From an uncultured Eubacteriales bacterium (lineage in GTDB: Bacteria; Acidobacteriota; Aminicenantia; Aminicenantales; Aminicenantaceae): DNA of 54,240 nucleotides. The stretch is from the NCBI GenBank assembly GCA_964435925.1, contig CAYTBG010000004.1, positions 1,792 through 56,031 on the forward strand, read 5' to 3'. Below are positions 5,949 to 37,985 of this stretch, one piece after another. The number at the start of each line of letters is the position of its first letter. Within the stretch, counting starts at the first letter, position 1. The notes under the pieces are model-generated. The model ran no database searches and was not told where the DNA came from. It was given only the letters and a program-made list of their open reading frames with translations. The position numbers and the translations under genes were made by a program.

Positions 5949-6731
5949 TTACCCGGCTAAGTCTTCTTCGGCTTTTTTCCGTTCTTTCTTTCTCCTTTTT
6001 TCTGAAAAGAAGGCAATCAGAATACTCAAGCCGTAAAGGGCTAACATGGGGCCAGCGATGATACTTTGAGTGATCATGTCTGGAGTGGGAGTGATGATAG
6101 CAGCAATGATAAAAATAGCCAAGACTGCATACTTGAAATTTTTTACCATCCATCTGGAGGTAATAATTCCCATACGTGAGAGGAAGAAAACGAGAGTGGG
6201 TAATTCAAAAACCAGAGCGATCCCCAAGAGCACCCGGAGAGCCAGGCTGAAATATTGTTTAACGGTAATGACGGGCCGAAAGTCAGCTCCCATACCTATG
6301 AAAAATCGGCAGGCCCAGGGGAAGACCACAAGGTAGCCGAAGAGACCTCCCAGGATAAAAAAGAACGATGTTAAAAAAACAAAGGGAATAACATATTTTT
6401 TTTCTTTCTGGTAGAGGCCAGGGGCAGTAAACAACCAGAATTGAAGAAAAATAAAGGGTGAAGTGGCAAAAATTGCAGTCAAAAACGAGACCTTGATGTA
6501 GAGCATAAAGGGTTCGGTCAGTGATGTGAAAGCTAACATCTCCCCTTCAGGAAGGAACTGGGTGACCGGGACAGCCAGGATTCCGAAGATTTCCTTACTG
6601 AAAAACCAGGCTGGGATGACAGCGAGGATGATGACAATGAAGGAGAGAAATATCCTTTTTCTGAGGTCTTCGAGATGTTCGAGGAAGGTCATACGGTCAG
6701 GAGTCTTTTTTCCCTTCCTCATTTCCTTCAA
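5949..6731 (-). CDS. tatC: Twin-arginine translocase subunit TatC
   Basis: MTFLEHLEDLRKR, FELP, IITPTPD motifs; multiple TM segments. Confidence 0.96.
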   Translation of the reverse strand: MKEMRKGKKTPDRMTFLEHLEDLRKRIFLSFIVIILAVIPAWFFSKEIFGILAVPVTQFLPEGEMLAFTSLTEPFMLYIKVSFLTAIFATSPFIFLQFWLFTAPGLYQKEKKYVIPFVFLTSFFFILGGLFGYLVVFPWACRFFIGMGADFRPVITVKQYFSLALRVLLGIALVFELPTLVFFLSRMGIITSRWMVKNFKYAVLAIFIIAAIITPTPDMITQSIIAGPMLALYGLSILIAFFSEKRRKKERKKAEEDLAG

Positions 6732-6942
6732 TATCCTTTTTAAACTCTTCCTTTATGTCTCTAAACTCGTCAACTTGGATCTCTTCTTCAATCTTTTCTT
6801 TGATTTCGTCAGATGTCCTTCTGAATTCTCGGAGGGCTTTACCTATAGACCTTCCTACCTCAGGGAGTTTTTTGGGCCCAAAGATGAGAAGGGCAACGGC
6901 GAGAATGATGAATAATTCAGGGAGTCCTATGTTTCCGAACAT
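6697..6942 (-). CDS. tatA: Twin-arginine translocase TatA/TatB subunit
   Basis: MFGNIGLPELFIILAVALLIFGPKKLPEVGRSIGKALREFRR; start reassigned to ATG 6942. Confidence 0.92.
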   Translation of the reverse strand: MFGNIGLPELFIILAVALLIFGPKKLPEVGRSIGKALREFRRTSDEIKEKIEEEIQVDEFRDIKEEFKKDIEGNEEGKKDS

Positions 6943-7045
6943 TTCTTTCTTTTCTTTAGAGACCTGAAAGCTTATAAAAATATAGCCGTTCAACCGGATT
7001 AAGTCAAGTTAGCACCTCCAAATCCATGATTGAGAAAAAATGGTG

Positions 7046-7140
7046 AGAAAAAATGGGGCCAGGCCCCATTTTCTGCTGTTATGTCCTCAAGTTGAGAATG
7101 TCCTCTTTCTTACAAAATGGGGCCTGGCCCCATTTTTTCT
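7046..7140. repeat. Inverted REP doublet (REPIN-like), GGGGCCAGGCCCC core
   Basis: 27 bp arm 7046-7072 AGAAAAAATGGGGCCAGGCCCCATTTT and its exact reverse complement at 7114-7140; each arm is itself a hairpin. Confidence 0.85.
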
Positions 7141-7245
7141 TGAACATAGCAACCAGTTATCACGGAAAAAAGAGGCGTCCCTAACTCTACAAGAACTTTA
7201 CAAGAACAAGAGGCTCTGGTAGTATTTGAGTGGACTGAAACAGGA

Positions 7246-8811
7246 ATGAAAAGAAAAATATCTTTACTATTTGCTTTGATCTTTGTGCTCGTCCTTGTTC
7301 CTGCTCGGAATGAGGATATCTGGAGTTCATATTTTGAGAAAGTATCCTCCATTGCTTCCCTCATAGAAGAAAGCTATTTTCGGGACATTGACCAGGAGGA
7401 GCTTGCCTATTCCTCTATAAAAGGGATGCTTCAGACTTTGGATCCGCATTCTTATTTTCTTGATCCAAGTCATTTCTCTCGTTTGAGAGAAGAACACGTG
7501 GGGAAATATCACGGCCTGGGAATCCTAATCCAGAAGCAGGAACAGCGTTTGGTTGTAATCTCTCCTATAGAAGGAGGGCCTGCATACAGGTTGGGAATTC
7601 AGGCTGGAGATGTTATTTCTCATATCAGCGGCGAGAGCACAAAGCCAATAACGAGTTACGAAGCAATGCTAAAGTTAAGGGGCGTTAAGGGAACCAAGGT
7701 CAAGATAACAATTGTCCGCGAGGGGATGGAAAAGCCTTTTGAGATGACCATAGTGAGGGAGGAGATACCTCTTTACAGCGTTCCCTATTCCTTTCTGCTT
7801 CAAGACGAAATTGGATACATTTTCATCCGAAATTTTGGTGGAACCACGACCAAGGAATTTGAAGAAAAAATGGAGTCGTTAGTCAAGCAAGGAATGAAGA
7901 GCCTCATCCTTGATATGAGGACGAATGGTGGCGGCACTTTTATTCAATCAATAGAGATTTCGGATGAATTTCTATCAAGAGGCACTCTTATTGTTTCAAT
8001 GAAAGGGAAGAAAAAGGAATACAATAGAGAATTCCGAGCTTTATACGACAATCAATATGAAAAAATTCCCCTTGTAATACTGATAAATCGAGGAAGTGCC
8101 AGCGCTCCTGAAATCGTAAGCGGAGCCATAAAGGATAACGACAGAGGTTTTATCGTGGGTGAAACCTCCTTTGGAAAAGGGCTGGTTCAGACAGTTCATC
8201 CCCTTTCTATGAATGCTGCGGTTGCCCTGACGACTGCAAAATATTTTACGCCGAGCGGCAGGTCAATCCAGAGAGATTATACTCACATTGAAGATTATAG
8301 GTTCACCACAAGAATCCAAGAAGCAGAAAGAGAAGTGAGGTATACTTCGGGAGGAAGAAAGGTCCTGGGCCAGGGAGGAATATCTCCTGATTATGAAGTG
8401 AAATTCTCTTTTCAGACTGTTACGGCACAGCTGCTGATTAAGGGAGCATTTTTCTCCTATGCTCAAAAGTTCTCGCATAATAATACTCCTCTGTCGAAAA
8501 GAATCAGCTTTCCCCCTAAAAGCCAGACACGGGTTAAAGATTCTGGCAGAAAAAAAGTTGTGGGAAGAGATTTTATCGTTGGTTCTCTGGTTATGAAAGA
8601 TTTCAAGGACTATCTTCGGGTAAGTAAAATTGATTATGACTTAGATCAATTTGAAGAGGCGAAAGAAGAAATAAAAAGAGAACTGGAAAGAGAGATATTT
8701 TCTTCACTCTGGGGCATTGAGGAAGGAGTAAAGGTTTATCGGAGTAGCGATCCTGTTGTTTTAAAAGCTATAGACGTCTTACCCGAAGCTTCAACCCTCA
8801 TAGAAAAATAA
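7246..8811 (+). CDS. S41 family C-terminal processing peptidase (CtpA/Prc-like)
   Basis: LDPHS, PDZ region, LILDMRTNGGG, SASAPEIVSGA, SFGKGLVQ, YFTPSGRSIQ; N-terminal signal. Confidence 0.93.
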   Translation: MKRKISLLFALIFVLVLVPARNEDIWSSYFEKVSSIASLIEESYFRDIDQEELAYSSIKGMLQTLDPHSYFLDPSHFSRLREEHVGKYHGLGILIQKQEQRLVVISPIEGGPAYRLGIQAGDVISHISGESTKPITSYEAMLKLRGVKGTKVKITIVREGMEKPFEMTIVREEIPLYSVPYSFLLQDEIGYIFIRNFGGTTTKEFEEKMESLVKQGMKSLILDMRTNGGGTFIQSIEISDEFLSRGTLIVSMKGKKKEYNREFRALYDNQYEKIPLVILINRGSASAPEIVSGAIKDNDRGFIVGETSFGKGLVQTVHPLSMNAAVALTTAKYFTPSGRSIQRDYTHIEDYRFTTRIQEAEREVRYTSGGRKVLGQGGISPDYEVKFSFQTVTAQLLIKGAFFSYAQKFSHNNTPLSKRISFPPKSQTRVKDSGRKKVVGRDFIVGSLVMKDFKDYLRVSKIDYDLDQFEEAKEEIKRELEREIFSSLWGIEEGVKVYRSSDPVVLKAIDVLPEASTLIEK

Positions 8812-8848
8812 AATGGGGCCAAATAAAATGGGGCCAGGCCCCATTATT
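8810..8848 (+). repeat. REP-like palindrome (one partial + one full copy)
   Basis: AAAATGGGGCC 8810-8820, then AAAATGGGGCCAGGCCCCATT from 8825. Confidence 0.8.
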
Positions 8849-8864
8849 CCCACGTCTATTAATT

Positions 8865-9835
8865 GTTAGGCCGGATAAAACCCTATCACAGGCAACGCCG
8901 TACAGGATGAAGGGGCCATGTGATTCCGAAAATGATTCGTCTTGGAGGACGGTATGCAACGACGACTGGTAGCTAGAAAGAGAGTCACGATTTTCTTGGT
9001 CACAATGTTCTCTTTCACGGCGATCGTTCTGGTGATGATGTCCGTGAGCGATGTTTTCGAGGCCATGGGATTCTTTGCCCTCGGATGGTCACCAGCGGCC
9101 GCAGCGTTTGTGACCATCCTCGTTACCGGCGGCAAGTTGACTGACCTTGGATTCCGGAAATCGCGGCCTCGATTTCTATTGCTCAGCATCGGTCTTGCTT
9201 GGTTCCTTGTCGTAACCGTCTACGGAACGGCGTGGCTCACCGGACTCGGTGGTTTCTATGATCAGTCGTTCGTCACGAATGCTCGCGACACCTTCAACAT
9301 CACCGCTGCTTCACCCCTTCAGGTCATCGCCATAAGTGGTGGCCTCTACGGGACGGTTGGCATTCTGTTCGCCAGTGTCCTAGCGCTCGGTGAAGAAATC
9401 GGATGGCGCGGTCTGCTGGTTCAAGAGCTCGCGAGGTTCAATTCGTTTACGAAAACGGCGCTCCTGAGTGGCGGCGTCTGGGCGCTATGGCATTTCCCGG
9501 TAATCTTGTTTTTTGGATACCACTCAAAGGCACCAGTTTGGTACGGCTTAGCGTGTGCCTCGACTGCTATGGTCTTGGTGAGCTTTCCATATGCTTGGTT
9601 GCGCCTGATGTCAGGTAGCGTTTGGACCGCCGCACTCTTGCATGGCGCCCACAACGTGCTGTTCCAAGAGATCTTCCATCCGTTGACCGTTGATACCGGT
9701 GCCACAGAATATGTCGTAGGCGAGTTCGGAGCCCTCGTGATACTCCCCGTGGCCTTCATCGTTTGGTTGGTTTGCCGCTACCGCGACCGAATTCCAAATC
9801 TTGCGTCAGAGGCGGACTAACAACTGGCTCAAGCG
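8865..9835 (+). mobile_element. Integron-gene-cassette-like unit with truncated attC
   Basis: GTTAGGC (GTTRRRY core) at 8865-8871. The gene stop lies inside GACTAAC (9815-9821), followed by AACTGGCTCAAGCG, resembling an attC left half; the rest is missing. Confidence 0.55.
8942..9820 (+). CDS. CPBP (CAAX/Abi) intramembrane glutamic endopeptidase
   Basis: LGEEIGWRG, WALWHFP, AALLHGAHN; visibly more GC-rich than its neighbours. Confidence 0.9.
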   Translation: MEDGMQRRLVARKRVTIFLVTMFSFTAIVLVMMSVSDVFEAMGFFALGWSPAAAAFVTILVTGGKLTDLGFRKSRPRFLLLSIGLAWFLVVTVYGTAWLTGLGGFYDQSFVTNARDTFNITAASPLQVIAISGGLYGTVGILFASVLALGEEIGWRGLLVQELARFNSFTKTALLSGGVWALWHFPVILFFGYHSKAPVWYGLACASTAMVLVSFPYAWLRLMSGSVWTAALLHGAHNVLFQEIFHPLTVDTGATEYVVGEFGALVILPVAFIVWLVCRYRDRIPNLASEAD

Positions 9836-9840
9836 TGATT

Positions 9841-9865
9841 AAAATGGGGCCAGGCCCCATTTTCT
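9841..9865 (+). repeat. REP-like palindrome
   Basis: AAAATGGGGCCAGGCCCCATTTTCT, same orientation as the 8825 copy. Confidence 0.85.
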
Positions 9866-9913
9866 AAAAAAAGGATTCTTCTTTTATTTACTTTTTTTTG
9901 TGAGATTTTTCTT

Positions 9914-9989
9914 GTAGGGGCTTGATTCATCAAGCCCACCTTTCTGATCTTAATAATTTATTAGTATGTTTGATAAATCAAACACCTAC
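9914..9989. repeat. GTAG-type REP inverted doublet (second REP family)
   Basis: GTAGGGGCTTGATTCATCAAGCCC at 9914-9937 and GTTTGATAAATCAAACACCTAC at 9968-9989 (reverse complement GTAGGTGTTTGATTTATCAAAC). Confidence 0.7.
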
Positions 9990-10098
9990 ACAAATAAAAG
10001 GAATCCAAACACAGATTCCCTTTTTTCAAGACAATCTTGTGTTTAACACTCTTTAAAATATTGTTATAATGACAAATCAATAATTAGAGGAGGAGTAA

Positions 10099-10548
10099 GT
10101 GAAAATTGCCACAGCCTCGGATCACGCAGGGTATGAGCTTAAGAAGGGAATCACAGCCTATCTTTCAGAGAAAGGAATAAAACACGAGGATTTTGGCTGC
10201 GGTCCAGGTGAAAAGGTTGATTATGTTGATTATGCGGAGAAAGCCATTAAAAGGGTCTCTTCAGGTGAGTATGACCGGGCAATCCTTGTTTGCGGTACAG
10301 GCCTTGGAATGGCTATCGTCGCCAACAAGCACAAAGGGATAAGAGCAACTTCCTGTTTGGATGAATATACGGCAGAAATGAGCCGCAGACACAACGATTC
10401 AAACTGTCTTACTTTAGGAGGGAGGATTGTTCCCCTGGATGAGGCCTTAAGCGTTGTCCGGATATGGCTTGAAACAGAGTTTGAGGGTGAACGGCATCAA
10501 AGAAGAATCGATAAAATTATTGATATAGAAGAGAGAAATTTTAAATAA
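10099..10548 (+). CDS. rpiB: Ribose-5-phosphate isomerase B
   Basis: ASDHAGYELK, CGTGLGM, HNDSNCLTLG, FEGERHQRR; GGAGG RBS, GTG start. Confidence 0.95.
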   Translation: MKIATASDHAGYELKKGITAYLSEKGIKHEDFGCGPGEKVDYVDYAEKAIKRVSSGEYDRAILVCGTGLGMAIVANKHKGIRATSCLDEYTAEMSRRHNDSNCLTLGGRIVPLDEALSVVRIWLETEFEGERHQRRIDKIIDIEERNFK

Positions 10549-10568
10549 ATAAGAGAGGAGTAAGAACA

Positions 10569-12005
10569 ATGTCTTCATTTTATGAAAAAATCCAAAATTT
10601 ATCTCAAAAGATAATAGAGAATAATAATTGGAGGCAGAGGGAATCTTTCAACCTCATTCCCTCTGAAACGACTCCTTCGACTCTGGTGAAGATGTGCGAG
10701 ATATCTGATCCCTCTGGCCGTTATGCTGAACACAGGACTATGAAAGGAGAAGAAATCTATTTTTACCAGGGAATAGATTTCATAAGGGATGTTGAAGAGG
10801 AAGCACGGCGCGAGTTCCAGCGCTTCTTTGATTGCACAGAAGTGGAATTACGAACAATAAGCGGCCAGATGGCCAACGAAGTCGTATTCAAAGGTTTGGT
10901 CCGCTTTCTCAATCGCGACCGCCCTCAAGGACAGCCGACGCGGAAGATGAAGCTGGTCATGAATAATGCGCTGACAAAAGGAGGACATCTCAGCTCTCAG
11001 CCCATGGGAGCGCTTTTCAACTTCGTGCAGGAGAATCCAGAAACAGGAAAGGAAAATGTCATCAATTTTCCTGTTTTAAGCGAAAATCAGTACAAGCCTG
11101 ACCTTGCCAAACTCGGAGAAATTTTAGACCGGCACAAGCCTGAGCTCATGGTGTTTGGCAAGAGCATGTTTCTCTACCAGGAGCCTGTCAAATTTGTTCA
11201 TGATATTGTTAAAGACTGGGAGGTGCCGCCCGTTATCATGTTTGATATGGCTCATGTTTTGGGGATATATGGTGCTTTTCAGGCGCCCTTAAGCGAAGGG
11301 GCTAATGTTATAACCGGAAGCACTCATAAAACCTTTTTCGGTCCTCAGAGAGGGATAGTAGCAGGCAACTTTCCCAAAGGGAGTCCGCTTCGAAAATTAT
11401 GGCTGGATATCAAAGGCCGTGCTTTTCCTGGTTCAACCAGCAACCATCATTTGGGAACGCTCCTTGCTCTGTTGATGGCTGTTTATGAAATGAATGAGTT
11501 TAAAGAAGAGTACCAGAAACAGGTCAGAGCCAATGCCAAAGCTTTTGCCCGGGCTTTGAAAGATACGAAAATTCAGGTAGAGGGAGATGAAAAAGATGGG
11601 TTTACAGAGACTCATCAAGTTGTTATCCGCATCAAAGCCCACGGCGACGGCCAGGAAATTGCCCGCCGTCTGGAAGAAAACAATATTGTAACCAATTATC
11701 AGGCGCTGCCAGATGATGAGACCTTTCTCAAAGCGAGTGGAATCCGAATGGGCGTCCAGGAAATGACCCGCTTCGGGATGAAAGAGAAAGATTTTGCCCA
11801 GCTTTCAGGTTTTATAGCAGATGTTATTATCAGGAACAAAAAGGTTAAGGAAGAGGTGAAAAAATATCGCGCCAACTTCCTCCAGATGAAGTACTGCCTT
11901 TCTCCCCAGGAAGCCCTCCCTATCGCAGCGAAAATAATTAAAAGCATCTTTCCCTACCCTGATTTTGCTGATTTGTTCATAGAAAACTTAGAGAAAAATA
12001 TCTAA
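10569..12005 (+). CDS. glyA: Serine hydroxymethyltransferase, archaeal-like/divergent type
   Basis: NLIPSE, SGQMAN, GGHLS, FDMAHV, STHKTFFGPQRG (PLP Lys), FPGSTSNHHL, SGIRMGVQEMTRFG. Confidence 0.85.
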   Translation: MSSFYEKIQNLSQKIIENNNWRQRESFNLIPSETTPSTLVKMCEISDPSGRYAEHRTMKGEEIYFYQGIDFIRDVEEEARREFQRFFDCTEVELRTISGQMANEVVFKGLVRFLNRDRPQGQPTRKMKLVMNNALTKGGHLSSQPMGALFNFVQENPETGKENVINFPVLSENQYKPDLAKLGEILDRHKPELMVFGKSMFLYQEPVKFVHDIVKDWEVPPVIMFDMAHVLGIYGAFQAPLSEGANVITGSTHKTFFGPQRGIVAGNFPKGSPLRKLWLDIKGRAFPGSTSNHHLGTLLALLMAVYEMNEFKEEYQKQVRANAKAFARALKDTKIQVEGDEKDGFTETHQVVIRIKAHGDGQEIARRLEENNIVTNYQALPDDETFLKASGIRMGVQEMTRFGMKEKDFAQLSGFIADVIIRNKKVKEEVKKYRANFLQMKYCLSPQEALPIAAKIIKSIFPYPDFADLFIENLEKNI

Positions 12006-15507: not shown

Positions 15508-16785
15508 ATGAAGATGGTTATGTCAAAGAAAAAAATTATTATTGGATCAATTATAATCCTGGTAATTGGGGTAATGATTATTTTAATTTCGACGAGAAAT
15601 AAAGGTGATCAAGGAATTTCGGTGGAAACTGCAAAAGTTGAACGACAAAAAATTGTGGAAACGGTTACTGCGACAGGAAGAATTCAGCCCAAAACAAAGG
15701 TCAAGATAAGCGCTGATGTTGCCGCGAAAATTACCGACTTGAATGTAAAAGAAGGTGAATGGGTTGAGAAGGGCAATTTTCTTGTTCAATTGGATCGGGA
15801 GCGTTTTTTAGCTGCAATGGAAAGCGCAGAAGCAAATTTGAAGGCAAGCGAGTCTAATGCTACGTTGGCAAAGGAAAATATGCTCAAAGCTGAAAAGGAT
15901 TATGTTCGAATCAAAGAATTATTCGAACAAAATCTGGAAACCCAGGCAAATTTAGACCAAACTTATGCGGCTGACAGAGCGGAAAAAGCACGTTACAATT
16001 CTGCGTTACAGCAGGTAGAGCAGGCAAAGGCTGTACTTAAACAAGCAAAAGATGATCTGTCCAAGACCACTATCTATGCTCCAATGTCCGGAACTATCAG
16101 TGAACTCAACAAAGAAGTAGGTGAAATTGCTCTTGGTTCTCAATTTCAAGAAGATGTGATCATGATTATTTCCAAGCTTTCCGGAATGGAAACATTGGTG
16201 AATGTTGATGAGAACGATGTTGTTTCTGTGGCTGTGGGAGACAGTGCAACAATAGAAGTGGATGCATTGCCAGATCAAGTTTTCCATGGTGTAGTAAGCG
16301 AAATTGCCAGCAGTGCAACAATCACTGGATCAGGTACCATGGACCAAAAAACCGAATTTGAGGTTAAAATTTCTATCACCAATCCTGGCAGAGAGTTAAG
16401 ACCTGGCATGACTGCAAGTAGTGATATTATTACAGAAACCAGGGAAGATGCGCTTGGTATCCCCATTCAATGTGTCACTGTTAGAACTCCGGAGCAGTTA
16501 AAAAAGAAAAAACCAAATGCTGGTGGTGTTGCTATTGATGACAGTTCATCCGAAGAAAATTACGTTCCAGATAAAGATGGCTTTGTAGAAGTGGTTTTTA
16601 TCGTAGAAGATGGCATTGCTAAGGCAAAACAGGTGAAAACCGGCATCCAGAGTGAAACTCACATTGAAATTATCGAAGGATTATCTGAAGGTGAAAAAAT
16701 TGTTACTGGAAGTTATCGTGCGATAAGTCAAACATTGCAAAATCAATCCCAGGTAGAAGTAAAAAAAGTGGATCAGCAAAAATAA
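15508..16785 (+). CDS. Efflux periplasmic adaptor (MFP, MacA/HlyD family)
   Basis: N-terminal TM, VTATGRIQP, coiled coil, TIYAPMSGTI, VNVDENDV, LRPGMTA. Confidence 0.92.
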   Translation: MKMVMSKKKIIIGSIIILVIGVMIILISTRNKGDQGISVETAKVERQKIVETVTATGRIQPKTKVKISADVAAKITDLNVKEGEWVEKGNFLVQLDRERFLAAMESAEANLKASESNATLAKENMLKAEKDYVRIKELFEQNLETQANLDQTYAADRAEKARYNSALQQVEQAKAVLKQAKDDLSKTTIYAPMSGTISELNKEVGEIALGSQFQEDVIMIISKLSGMETLVNVDENDVVSVAVGDSATIEVDALPDQVFHGVVSEIASSATITGSGTMDQKTEFEVKISITNPGRELRPGMTASSDIITETREDALGIPIQCVTVRTPEQLKKKKPNAGGVAIDDSSSEENYVPDKDGFVEVVFIVEDGIAKAKQVKTGIQSETHIEIIEGLSEGEKIVTGSYRAISQTLQNQSQVEVKKVDQQK

Positions 16786-37467: not shown

Positions 37468-37985
37468 AAAATGGCGCCTGTCCCCATTTCTCTAAACTTG
37501 ACTTCACGGACACCTGAGAGTAAAATCTCCCCACAACCAAAATGGAGGAGATTAAGCTCCCCACGCTTCAGGATGTAAAAAAAGATGATATGTAAACATT
37601 GTCTCAAAGAAGTGACGCAATATGCTCCTCTTGGCTACTGTGCTCAGTGTGGCGTATGGTACAAAGCCGAAGGCGAAGAAATAAAGGGCGTATACATGCT
37701 CTGTTCTACAAAAAAAGACAATCCAGAAAAGTGCAATCTGGTAGTTCAAGGCCTGTTCATAGGGGCTGAAGAATTGCCAGAAAGTGGAGAAACACCTATT
37801 GCTACAACAAGAATGCCCAACGTTCGTAAAGCCGATAAGATCTGTGTCTCTTGTGCGGATAAACACTTTGTTTTGTAGCTTTTTAATTAGACCTTAGAGC
37901 GGTCAGATTCATGGCCGTTTTTTTTAAAACCAGCCTGTCCCCTTTTCCCAACTTGGTGTGAAAATGGGGCCTGTCCCCATTTCTC
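37468..37985 (+). repeat. Direct REP pair (24/25 identical) plus a partial third copy
   Basis: AAAATGGCGCCTGTCCCCATTTCTC 37468-37492; AAAATGGGGCCTGTCCCCATTTCTC 37961-37985; partial CAGCCTGTCCCCTTTT near 37931. Confidence 0.8.
37585..37878 (+). CDS. Small Cys-rich (putative zinc-binding) protein
   Basis: CKHC, CAQC, C..C pair and CVSC in 97 aa. Confidence 0.55.
   Translation: MICKHCLKEVTQYAPLGYCAQCGVWYKAEGEEIKGVYMLCSTKKDNPEKCNLVVQGLFIGAEELPESGETPIATTRMPNVRKADKICVSCADKHFVL

Follow-up and report, generated by a model that had tools for sequence, protein, structure and literature searches.

The 54,240-nt stretch of contig CAYTBG010000004.1 analysed here (the window) comes from an uncultured bacterium of the Aminicenantes. 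Between a peptidase gene of family S41 and rpiB it holds a gene for a CPBP/Rce1-like intramembrane protease, which is bracketed by two hairpins of the repetitive extragenic palindrome (REP) type and carries cassette-like motifs at its ends. The gene lies on a 983-bp segment whose origin, manner of arrival and present state are the subject of this work. The host genome (G000) is a metagenome-assembled genome (MAG) of 2.84 Mb in 172 contigs, 88% complete and with 41.7% GC; over positions 8900-9800 of the window GC is 0.51-0.59, against 0.36-0.46 in the flanks.

A first-pass annotation of the window had listed two REPs, a GTTAGGC motif, a GC-richer CPBP gene, its TAA stop codon and, 5 nt before the second REP, the end of the unit, and each of these elements is present where it had been placed (Table 1). 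The REP core AAAATGGGGCCAGGCCCCATT occupies 8825-8845 and 9841-9863 with loop base A in both copies, which makes them direct repeats. A GGAGGA ribosome-binding site (8944-8949) precedes the likely start codon, and the stop codon TAA (9818-9820) sits within GACTAAC, which is followed by AACTGGCTCAAGCG. Both flanking genes are conserved: orthologues of the S41 gene have 85-91% amino acid identity in five genomes of the same genus, and rpiB adjoins the S41 gene in G002, G005, G007 and G010.

Table 1. Features of the S41-rpiB locus, in window coordinates.
Feature	Position	Strand	Evidence or remark
REPIN-type doublet, two convergent REPs 64 nt apart, 5' of the S41 gene	7046..7140		Inverted pair, 27 nt, 100% complementary
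S41 (Ctp-type) PDZ peptidase gene, conserved left flank	7246..8811	+	Pfam Peptidase_S41, 1.6e-46
Half REP AAAATGGGGCC, a duplicated left arm; overlaps the S41 stop codon, just 5' of the left REP	8810..8820	+	
Resident left REP hairpin with its ancestral 3' flank TATTCCCA	8825..8852	+	REP+TTCCCA at the same place without insert in G002 and G005
CGTCTATTAATT, 12 nt from the upstream junction of the donor, where the 983-bp fragment begins	8853..8864	+	Common to L017, L021, L051, L052 and L082
GTTAGGC core site (R'), canonical 5' cassette boundary G|TT	8865..8871	+	Same position in every sister copy (GTTGGGC in L082/L083)
Remnant of the ancestral 5' coding region, old ATG (8907) now out of frame	8907..8953	+	Alignment to longer homologues L009 and L016
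CPBP/Rce1-like intramembrane protease open reading frame, 288 codons, intact (ATG at 8954)	8954..9820	+	Pfam PF02517, 1.8e-13
attC remnant: R'' GACTAAC 9815-9821, spacer AACTG 9822-9826, first 9 nt of L'' GCTCAAGCG 9827-9835	9815..9835	+	Right end of the 983-bp fragment
TGATT (5 nt) and second REP hairpin, orientation as the first	9836..9863	+	
Unique T-rich filler, extra relative to G002	9864..9911	+	
Second palindromic repeat family TTGTAGGGGCTTGATTCATCAAGCCCACC; ancestral spacer resumes	9912..9940		Directly after the REP in G002, G004, G005 and G006
rpiB, conserved right flank	10099..10548	+	Pfam LacAB_rpiB, 2.6e-54

A cassette with two non-canonical ends

The 983-bp segment was not found in any of the six other species representatives of the genus, and their S41-rpiB spacers show what the site looks like without it. 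One REP lies there in G002 and G006, 1.5 REPs in G004 (the same form as at the left of the window segment, and again without a cassette) and two in G005, followed in each case by TTGTAGGGGCTTGATTCATCAAGCCCACC. The spacer of G002 reads S41-TAAA-REP-TTCCCA-TCTTGTAGGGGC...rpiB, and G004, G005 and G006 are alike; that of the window reads REP-TATTCCCA, the 983 bp, then TGATTAAA-REP-TTTCTAAAAAAAGG, a unique T-rich filler and TTTTC-TTGTAGGGGC. The empty site with a single REP that the first-pass annotation had proposed to look for thus exists. Because the left REP and 8 nt of its 3' flank are found in relatives that lack the gene, the left REP was resident before the segment arrived. The right REP is missing at the equivalent position in G002, G004 and G006, and the second REP of G005 is preceded by ATTAAA. 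Relative to G002 the right REP and the filler are both extra, and no second copy of the filler was found in the genome. The palindromes that follow it (TTGTAGGGGCTTGATTCATCAAGCCCACC and its GGTGGGTTTGATAAATCAAACCCCTACA variants, at 9912-9940 and 9962-9990) are unrelated to REPs, stand beside REPs in many intergenic spacers and differ in copy number among species.

Close relatives of the gene were recovered from metagenome contigs through a protein cluster at 90% identity (L017, L018, L021, L051, L052, L081 and L082). These contigs come from sister strains whose housekeeping genes are 86-94% identical in DNA to those of this genome. By blastn, positions 3400-4382 of L017 match window positions 8853-9835 at 95.2%, and the corresponding figure for L021 is 96.6%. 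In L017, L018, L021, L051, L052 and L082 the gene is preceded by GTTAGGCC (GTTGGGCC in L082/L083), and the sister copies end in a complete attC of 100-135 nt, GACTAAC-AACTC-GCTCAAGCGGAC...GTCCGCTTAGC-TCGATACT-GTTATGC. Past the equivalent of GCTCAAGCG, where the window copy breaks off, they run on as GACCGC...GTCCGCTTAGC...GTTATGC. The attC of L021 folds with paired R-box and L-box stems, and each unit consists of a single open reading frame (ORF) oriented towards its attC. Judged by its sequence, the gene of the 983-bp fragment is an integron cassette, because near-identical copies in sister strains have a full attC that starts at exactly the same GACTAAC. The proposal that the gene was a cassette, and the expectation that its homologues would prove to be cassette-borne, are borne out by copies at another locus.

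Three contexts of the gene are known: the S41-rpiB spacer of the window, an rSAM-PK_C spacer, between a radical-SAM gene and a gene with a PK_C domain (L017, L021, L051, L052 and L081), and flanks made of a repeat of about 380 nt (L082 and L083). G003 and G004 have an empty rSAM-PK_C site of about 90 nt. At the sister loci represented by L017 and L021, one ORF and one complete attC stand with no integron integrase gene (intI) nearby, which is the arrangement of a single attC site lacking an integron integrase (SALIN). An Rfam scan of window positions 6500-10500 returned no match to an attC family, only sub-threshold noise at the REPs.

Several further observations concern the sister loci. The Logan contigs L082 (1-1493) and L083 (1-1474) contain an AT-rich leader, the CPBP cassette and a full attC, with parts of the ~380-nt repeat at both ends; the contig ends nearly overlap, as they would in a circle or a tandem array, and the repeat has several copies in G000 (C7, C25, C2 and others). 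A ~380-bp insertion directly 5' of the cassette's AT-rich leader (L017:2886-3171) sets L017 apart from L021. Contig C116 of G000 ends within the same element as that insertion, and the adjoining radical-SAM gene is missing from G000.

When an integrase makes a junction, the break lies exactly at G|TT and the whole attC is left, and a circular cassette brings the 3' end of its own attC to the position upstream of G|TT. The ends of the window segment differ from this on both sides. On the left, the sequence shared with the sister copies begins with CGTCTATTAATT, 12 nt 5' of GTTAGGC; in the sister strains CGTCTATTAATT closes a 225-nt AT-rich region that bears a promoter and lies before the cassette, and blastn found no match to that region in this genome. 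On the right, homology ends after GCTCAAGCG, which leaves 21 nt from the start of the attC (R'', five nt of spacer and nine of L''). For the distal half, blastn gave no match anywhere in this genome. The claim that the attC had been clipped next to a REP is therefore correct, with the REP 5 nt beyond the remnant. The claim that the unit was bounded by REPs fails at the left, where the transferred DNA ends 12 nt upstream of GTTAGGC, neither at the hairpin nor at the integrase crossover.

Since neither end of the fragment is at the G|TT crossover, we infer that its arrival was non-canonical and was not an attC x att reaction. The window holds no complete R''-L''...L'-R' attC and, with the attC cut down, no SALIN; nor are its junctions those of an insertion at an attG secondary site, as the 12 nt 5' of GTT are donor-derived and the attC is incomplete. 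With L', R' and the hairpin tip lost, the site should no longer be able to fold or be excised by integrase.

We consider it highly probable that window positions 8853-9835 are a 983-bp piece of an integron-cassette locus that became stranded in the REP-rich S41-rpiB spacer of one Aminicenantes species. The donor would have been a locus like that of the sister strains, giving 12 nt of upstream junction, GTTAGGC, a short leader, the ORF and 21 nt of attC, and the piece would have come in by a non-canonical route, through illegitimate or REP-associated recombination. Clipping of the attC would then have precluded excision and made a mobile cassette into a fixed chromosomal gene.

The ORF is intact in all copies, which share 94.6-97.2% nucleotide identity (95.5-97.2% between the window and the sister copies), and dN/dS among them is 0.13-0.6. 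From this intactness and these ratios, the CPBP gene appears to be a working gene, fixed in the chromosome and held by purifying selection. Its transcription probably depends on read-through from the S41 gene, and the transcript probably ends at the right-hand REP. More distant homologues (L009-L016, 82-89% amino acid identity) lie in ordinary chromosomal settings, beside genes for Tricorn/PD40 proteins, a hydrolase and MacB, and the genes around them reach only 30-46% identity to this genome. DNA homology to them runs from near 8907 to about 9811, 3-4 nt short of R'' (aligned with L009:4001-4963, L015:4001-4732 and L016:3337-4293), and they have nine further C-terminal codons where the attC would be. 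A gene of this type may represent the state before cassette life, or possibly after it, and so record the birth or the domestication of a cassette.

REPs, an integron and a second clipped cassette

The first-pass annotation saw no intI in the window, and there is none, though contig C18 of the same genome has one. The encoded integrase scores 463.9 bits against TIGR02249 (cut-off 265; G000:C18:6529-7470), and its gene is flanked by single-ORF units of alternating GC that are split by classic attC sites, such as GCATAACAAACCGCTCAAGCTG... and GCATAACAAACCGCTCAAGCTGACAGG...CAGCTTAGCGCCATCGTTAGAC. These attCs were identified by eye; a crude genome-wide attC finder, too noisy and too strict, missed them. 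The attC remnant of the window resembles the attCs of the C18 array, and the CPBP gene ends in what could pass for the first third of one of them. The intI of G005 carries one stop codon. The C18 intI gene (6415-7476, plus strand, in region G000:C18:6150-7730) has inverted copies of a ~190-nt attI/Pc-like region on both sides, where Pc denotes the cassette promoter; each copy ends in GGCTGTATAATATATGTTA, and attC cassette arrays run outward both ways. An integron with two attI sites would be unusual. An intI-like fragment of 35 residues lies at 15919-16023 on the minus strand.

The hairpins were called REPs in the first-pass annotation, and copy number, convergent doublets and a REP-flanked transposase-like gene show that they are. 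The genome has about 100-110 copies, and a 19-nt hairpin pattern occurs six times in the window and in none of 100 shuffles. Fifteen convergent doublets with a spacing of 49-73 nt, including that at 7046-7140, resemble REPINs (REP doublets forming hairpins), a concept reportedly due to Bertels and Rainey. On contig C36 (region 10069-11061; L080:1302-1964, minus strand) lies a 220-aa ORF of the Y1/HuH type found in REP-associated tyrosine transposases (RAYTs), with HFHLV and Y..Q motifs. It scores 58.4 bits against Pfam Y1_Tnp and 74.2 bits against NCBIfam REP_Tyr_transpos, just below the cut-off of 80, and REPs bracket it (L080 1270 and 2220/2246). Each of seven genomes of the genus has one to four RAYT-type genes.

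When 102 REPs are given a polarity by their loop base, an extra 5' left arm accompanies 23 and an extra 3' right arm 8. A few REPs look nested whole between the arms of another REP. Examples of these half-arm and nested forms are at G000:C84:12439, at G000:C56:4139 and at window 8810-8845. They suggest that arms were duplicated or that REPs inserted into one another, with a strand bias. Elsewhere in the window, at 37468-37985, two direct REP variants of the GGGGCCTGTCCCC type surround a 97-aa Cys-rich ORF, where no core site or attC remnant was seen.

A second cassette in this genome has been cut in a similar way. On contig C66, a 186-aa PEMT/ICMT-like methyltransferase gene lies between two direct REPs, in the interval between ruvB and queA, and the empty ruvB-queA sites of G001, G004 and G006 hold one REP. 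L068 carries an 88% identical homologue as the second cassette after an integron integrase gene (431.9 bits), between two attCs, in the order intI, methyltransferase cassette, attC, GTTATGCC-PEMT-GCCATAACATCGCCTTCAACTCG|GGCTGCC.... In full, the sequence there reads GTTATGCC-PEMT-GCCATAAC-ATCGC-CTTCAACTCG|GGCTGCCAAT..., whereas C66 and two related metagenome contigs, L066 and L067, instead have ...CTTCAACTCG|CCAAAAA-REP (...CAACTCG|CCAAAAA-REP). The attCs of the CPBP and PEMT cassettes are thus cut 21 and 22 nt after the AAC of R'', and each abuts a REP of the same polarity.

Both junctions match TAAC-N7-TCAA-N9-AAATGGGGCC. A search of 96 genomes of the family with this pattern returned these two and one chance match in a coding region of G074; two scans of metagenome collections gave 0 matches, and they also missed JGI contigs known to contain the pattern. 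If cut positions were random in attCs of 70-135 nt, two endpoints would come to lie no more than 1 nt apart in a few percent of cases, which is suggestive, though n=2. Relative to the PEMT cassette, the half-arm GGCCCCATTTTC is on one side in C66 and on the other in L066, as if the unit had been circularly permuted through the REP.

In front of the C66 copy (G000:C66:7200-8110; L064 1200-2110) there is also a diverged second copy, 95 bp long, of the start of queA and the region upstream of it. The duplicate is not present in L066 or L067 and looks like the result of integration of a circle with queA homology. Both fossil cassettes (window 8954-9820 and G000:C66:7385-7945) encode membrane enzymes of families named after eukaryotic CAAX processing, a Rce1-like protease and an ICMT/PEMT-like methyltransferase, which may be a coincidence.

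By sequence, the shared clip position of the two cassettes raises the possibility of REP-linked clipping or relocation. In its strongest form, REP/RAYT activity or REP x REP recombination would cut folded attCs about 21-22 nt after the AAC, just past the R''-L'' boxes to which the integrase binds, and replace the rest with a REP, relocating cassettes from integrons or SALINs to REP-marked spacers; we regard this mechanism as a speculative proposal and an unlikely one. A variant in which circularisation yields a hybrid attC tipped by a REP (R''-L''-REP-L'-R') was rejected as stated, because no proper L box forms and because the 12 nt on the left derive from the neighbouring upstream DNA and are no part of the attC of the cassette. 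When the hybrid is folded, only the R box, the REP stem and 4 bp (CGTG/CACG, in CPBP) or 3 bp (in PEMT) pair, with no proper L box.

The first-pass annotation had the cassette travel as cargo between REPs, that is, as a REP-gene-REP composite made mobile by a RAYT/HuH enzyme or through a REP x REP circle. The direct REPs of the same polarity at both cassette loci are what such a composite would leave, as is the abutment of two unrelated cassettes on a REP at the same attC position; the genome has a RAYT gene, G002 lacks the right REP and the filler, the placement of GGCCCCATTTTC in C66 and L066 looks as though a circle had been opened at a REP, and the nested REPs suggest that REPs land in or next to REPs. 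However, the unit did not import both REPs, since the left one is ancestral together with its 5' flank and 8 nt on its 3' side, and the left breakpoint of the unit does not coincide with a REP. The unit is single-copy, at one locus, and not present in six congeners. Direct REP pairs around single genes without cassette marks occur elsewhere (window 37468-37985 and contig C93), as expected of repeats that lie between genes, and to our knowledge no RAYT has ever been shown to move cargo of kilobase size. We judge this explanation improbable. With the left REP and both flanks resident in relatives without the gene, the link between HuH/REP mobility and cassettes does not hold as first worded; a weaker form of it survives in the second, identically clipped cassette.

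A different possibility is that a circular cassette was inserted by the integrase at an attG-like site in the spacer and that the distal attC was lost later, by insertion of a REP or by replication slippage between hairpins. An intI is present in the genome, the homology of the PEMT gene to its array copy begins at GTTATGCC, which is a canonical boundary, and cassettes are known to insert outside integrons and give rise to SALINs (bioRxiv 10.1101/2022.09.11.507474). Against this, the 12 nt 5' of G|TT at the CPBP gene match the sister-strain locus and not the S41-rpiB target, and the model needs two later, independent deletions, in different attCs, with endpoints no more than 1 nt apart. Canonical insertion followed by loss thus seems a poor candidate for this locus.

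Several points weigh against the view that a cassette-locus piece was stranded in the spacer. The regularity of the clip position is that of two cases. No intermediate of arrival, such as a REP-interrupted attC with its distal half kept, was found, and there are no REPs in the C18 array or in the integron region of G005. No promoter has been shown for the CPBP gene, and a consensus scan made no plus-strand terminator call at the right REP. Outside the window, the S41-CPBP-rpiB arrangement is found only in L053 and L054, from two neighbouring JGI samples. As L053 matches the window at 100% along 3.8 kb, these contigs and the window are probably the same population and not independent.

These two contigs also bear on whether the arrangement is an assembly artefact, in which a contig was mis-joined at REPs and the gene does not truly lie between S41 and rpiB. 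A MAG of 172 contigs, 88% complete and with ~100 REP copies, might invite such an error. Yet the REPs, at ~23 nt, are shorter than the usual assembly k-mers, the left junction lies 8 nt past the REP in unique sequence, and the same arrangement was assembled in L053, over its 3.8 kb of identity, and in L054. A mis-join is therefore very improbable.

Comparison with known systems

A close parallel to the window locus is the SALIN, or the small cluster of attC sites lacking an integron integrase (CALIN), that arises by attG insertion (Loot et al., bioRxiv 10.1101/2022.09.11.507474): in both, a lone cassette lies outside an integron in a genome with access to an integrase, and imprecise excision can alter the flanking DNA (same source). 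The window locus differs in that its attC is down to 21 nt and its left end lies 12 nt 5' of the crossover, and it would escape detection as a SALIN. With these two ends, the locus as it stands does not reflect a clean attC x attG exchange.

In class 1 integrons, cassettes become fixed by loss of their attC, as with qacEdelta1 in the 3' conserved segment and with fused cassettes. There, as here, a cassette gene is immobilised when another DNA event truncates the site downstream of it. Cases of the qacEdelta1 type are found within integrons and go back to the insertion of sul1 or of an insertion sequence (IS), whereas the window case lies in a housekeeping spacer and abuts a REP, and the window genome has a second cassette cut at the same attC position.

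The palindromes themselves are like those of REP/REPIN-RAYT systems (Corneloup et al., PMC8266576), being short and GC-rich with A/T shoulders and present in ~100 intergenic copies; that work refers to integrons solely by analogy, for the recognition of folded single-stranded DNA by enzymes. The convergent doublets and the one REP-flanked Y1/HuH gene extend the likeness. We know of no role of REPs or RAYTs in gene capture or in attC processing.

Both kinds of hairpin are known as insertion targets: attC sites are targeted by IS1111-attC elements and group IIC-attC introns, and REPs by IS1397/ISKpn1 and by IS110 members of the IS621 type. Arrival of a REP-family element at a fixed point of attC would be an event of the same kind. 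In the window, however, the distal half of the attC is gone, not displaced, and what adjoins the remnant is only a 23-nt REP, with no IS or intron sequence.

Cassettes have mostly been studied while mobile, and little has been documented, above all beyond clinical Proteobacteria, of how they turn into ordinary chromosomal genes. One uncultured lineage here offers three stages: the gene in the ordinary chromosome of another lineage, a full-attC cassette in sister strains and a clipped, immobile copy in the window. If REP-linked cutting of attCs were real, it would connect integrons with REP/RAYT, both of which act on folded single-stranded DNA, would involve REPs in gene fixation and would amount to a dedicated route by which mobile cassettes become permanent chromosomal genes. 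If the shared clip position is a coincidence, the locus is still a clean and datable case of cassette domestication, of a kind of fossil that attC-based finders miss. The locus is best filed as a fossilised cassette: isolated and immobilised cassettes are known from the systems above, and what is new is the clipping at a fixed attC position against a REP.

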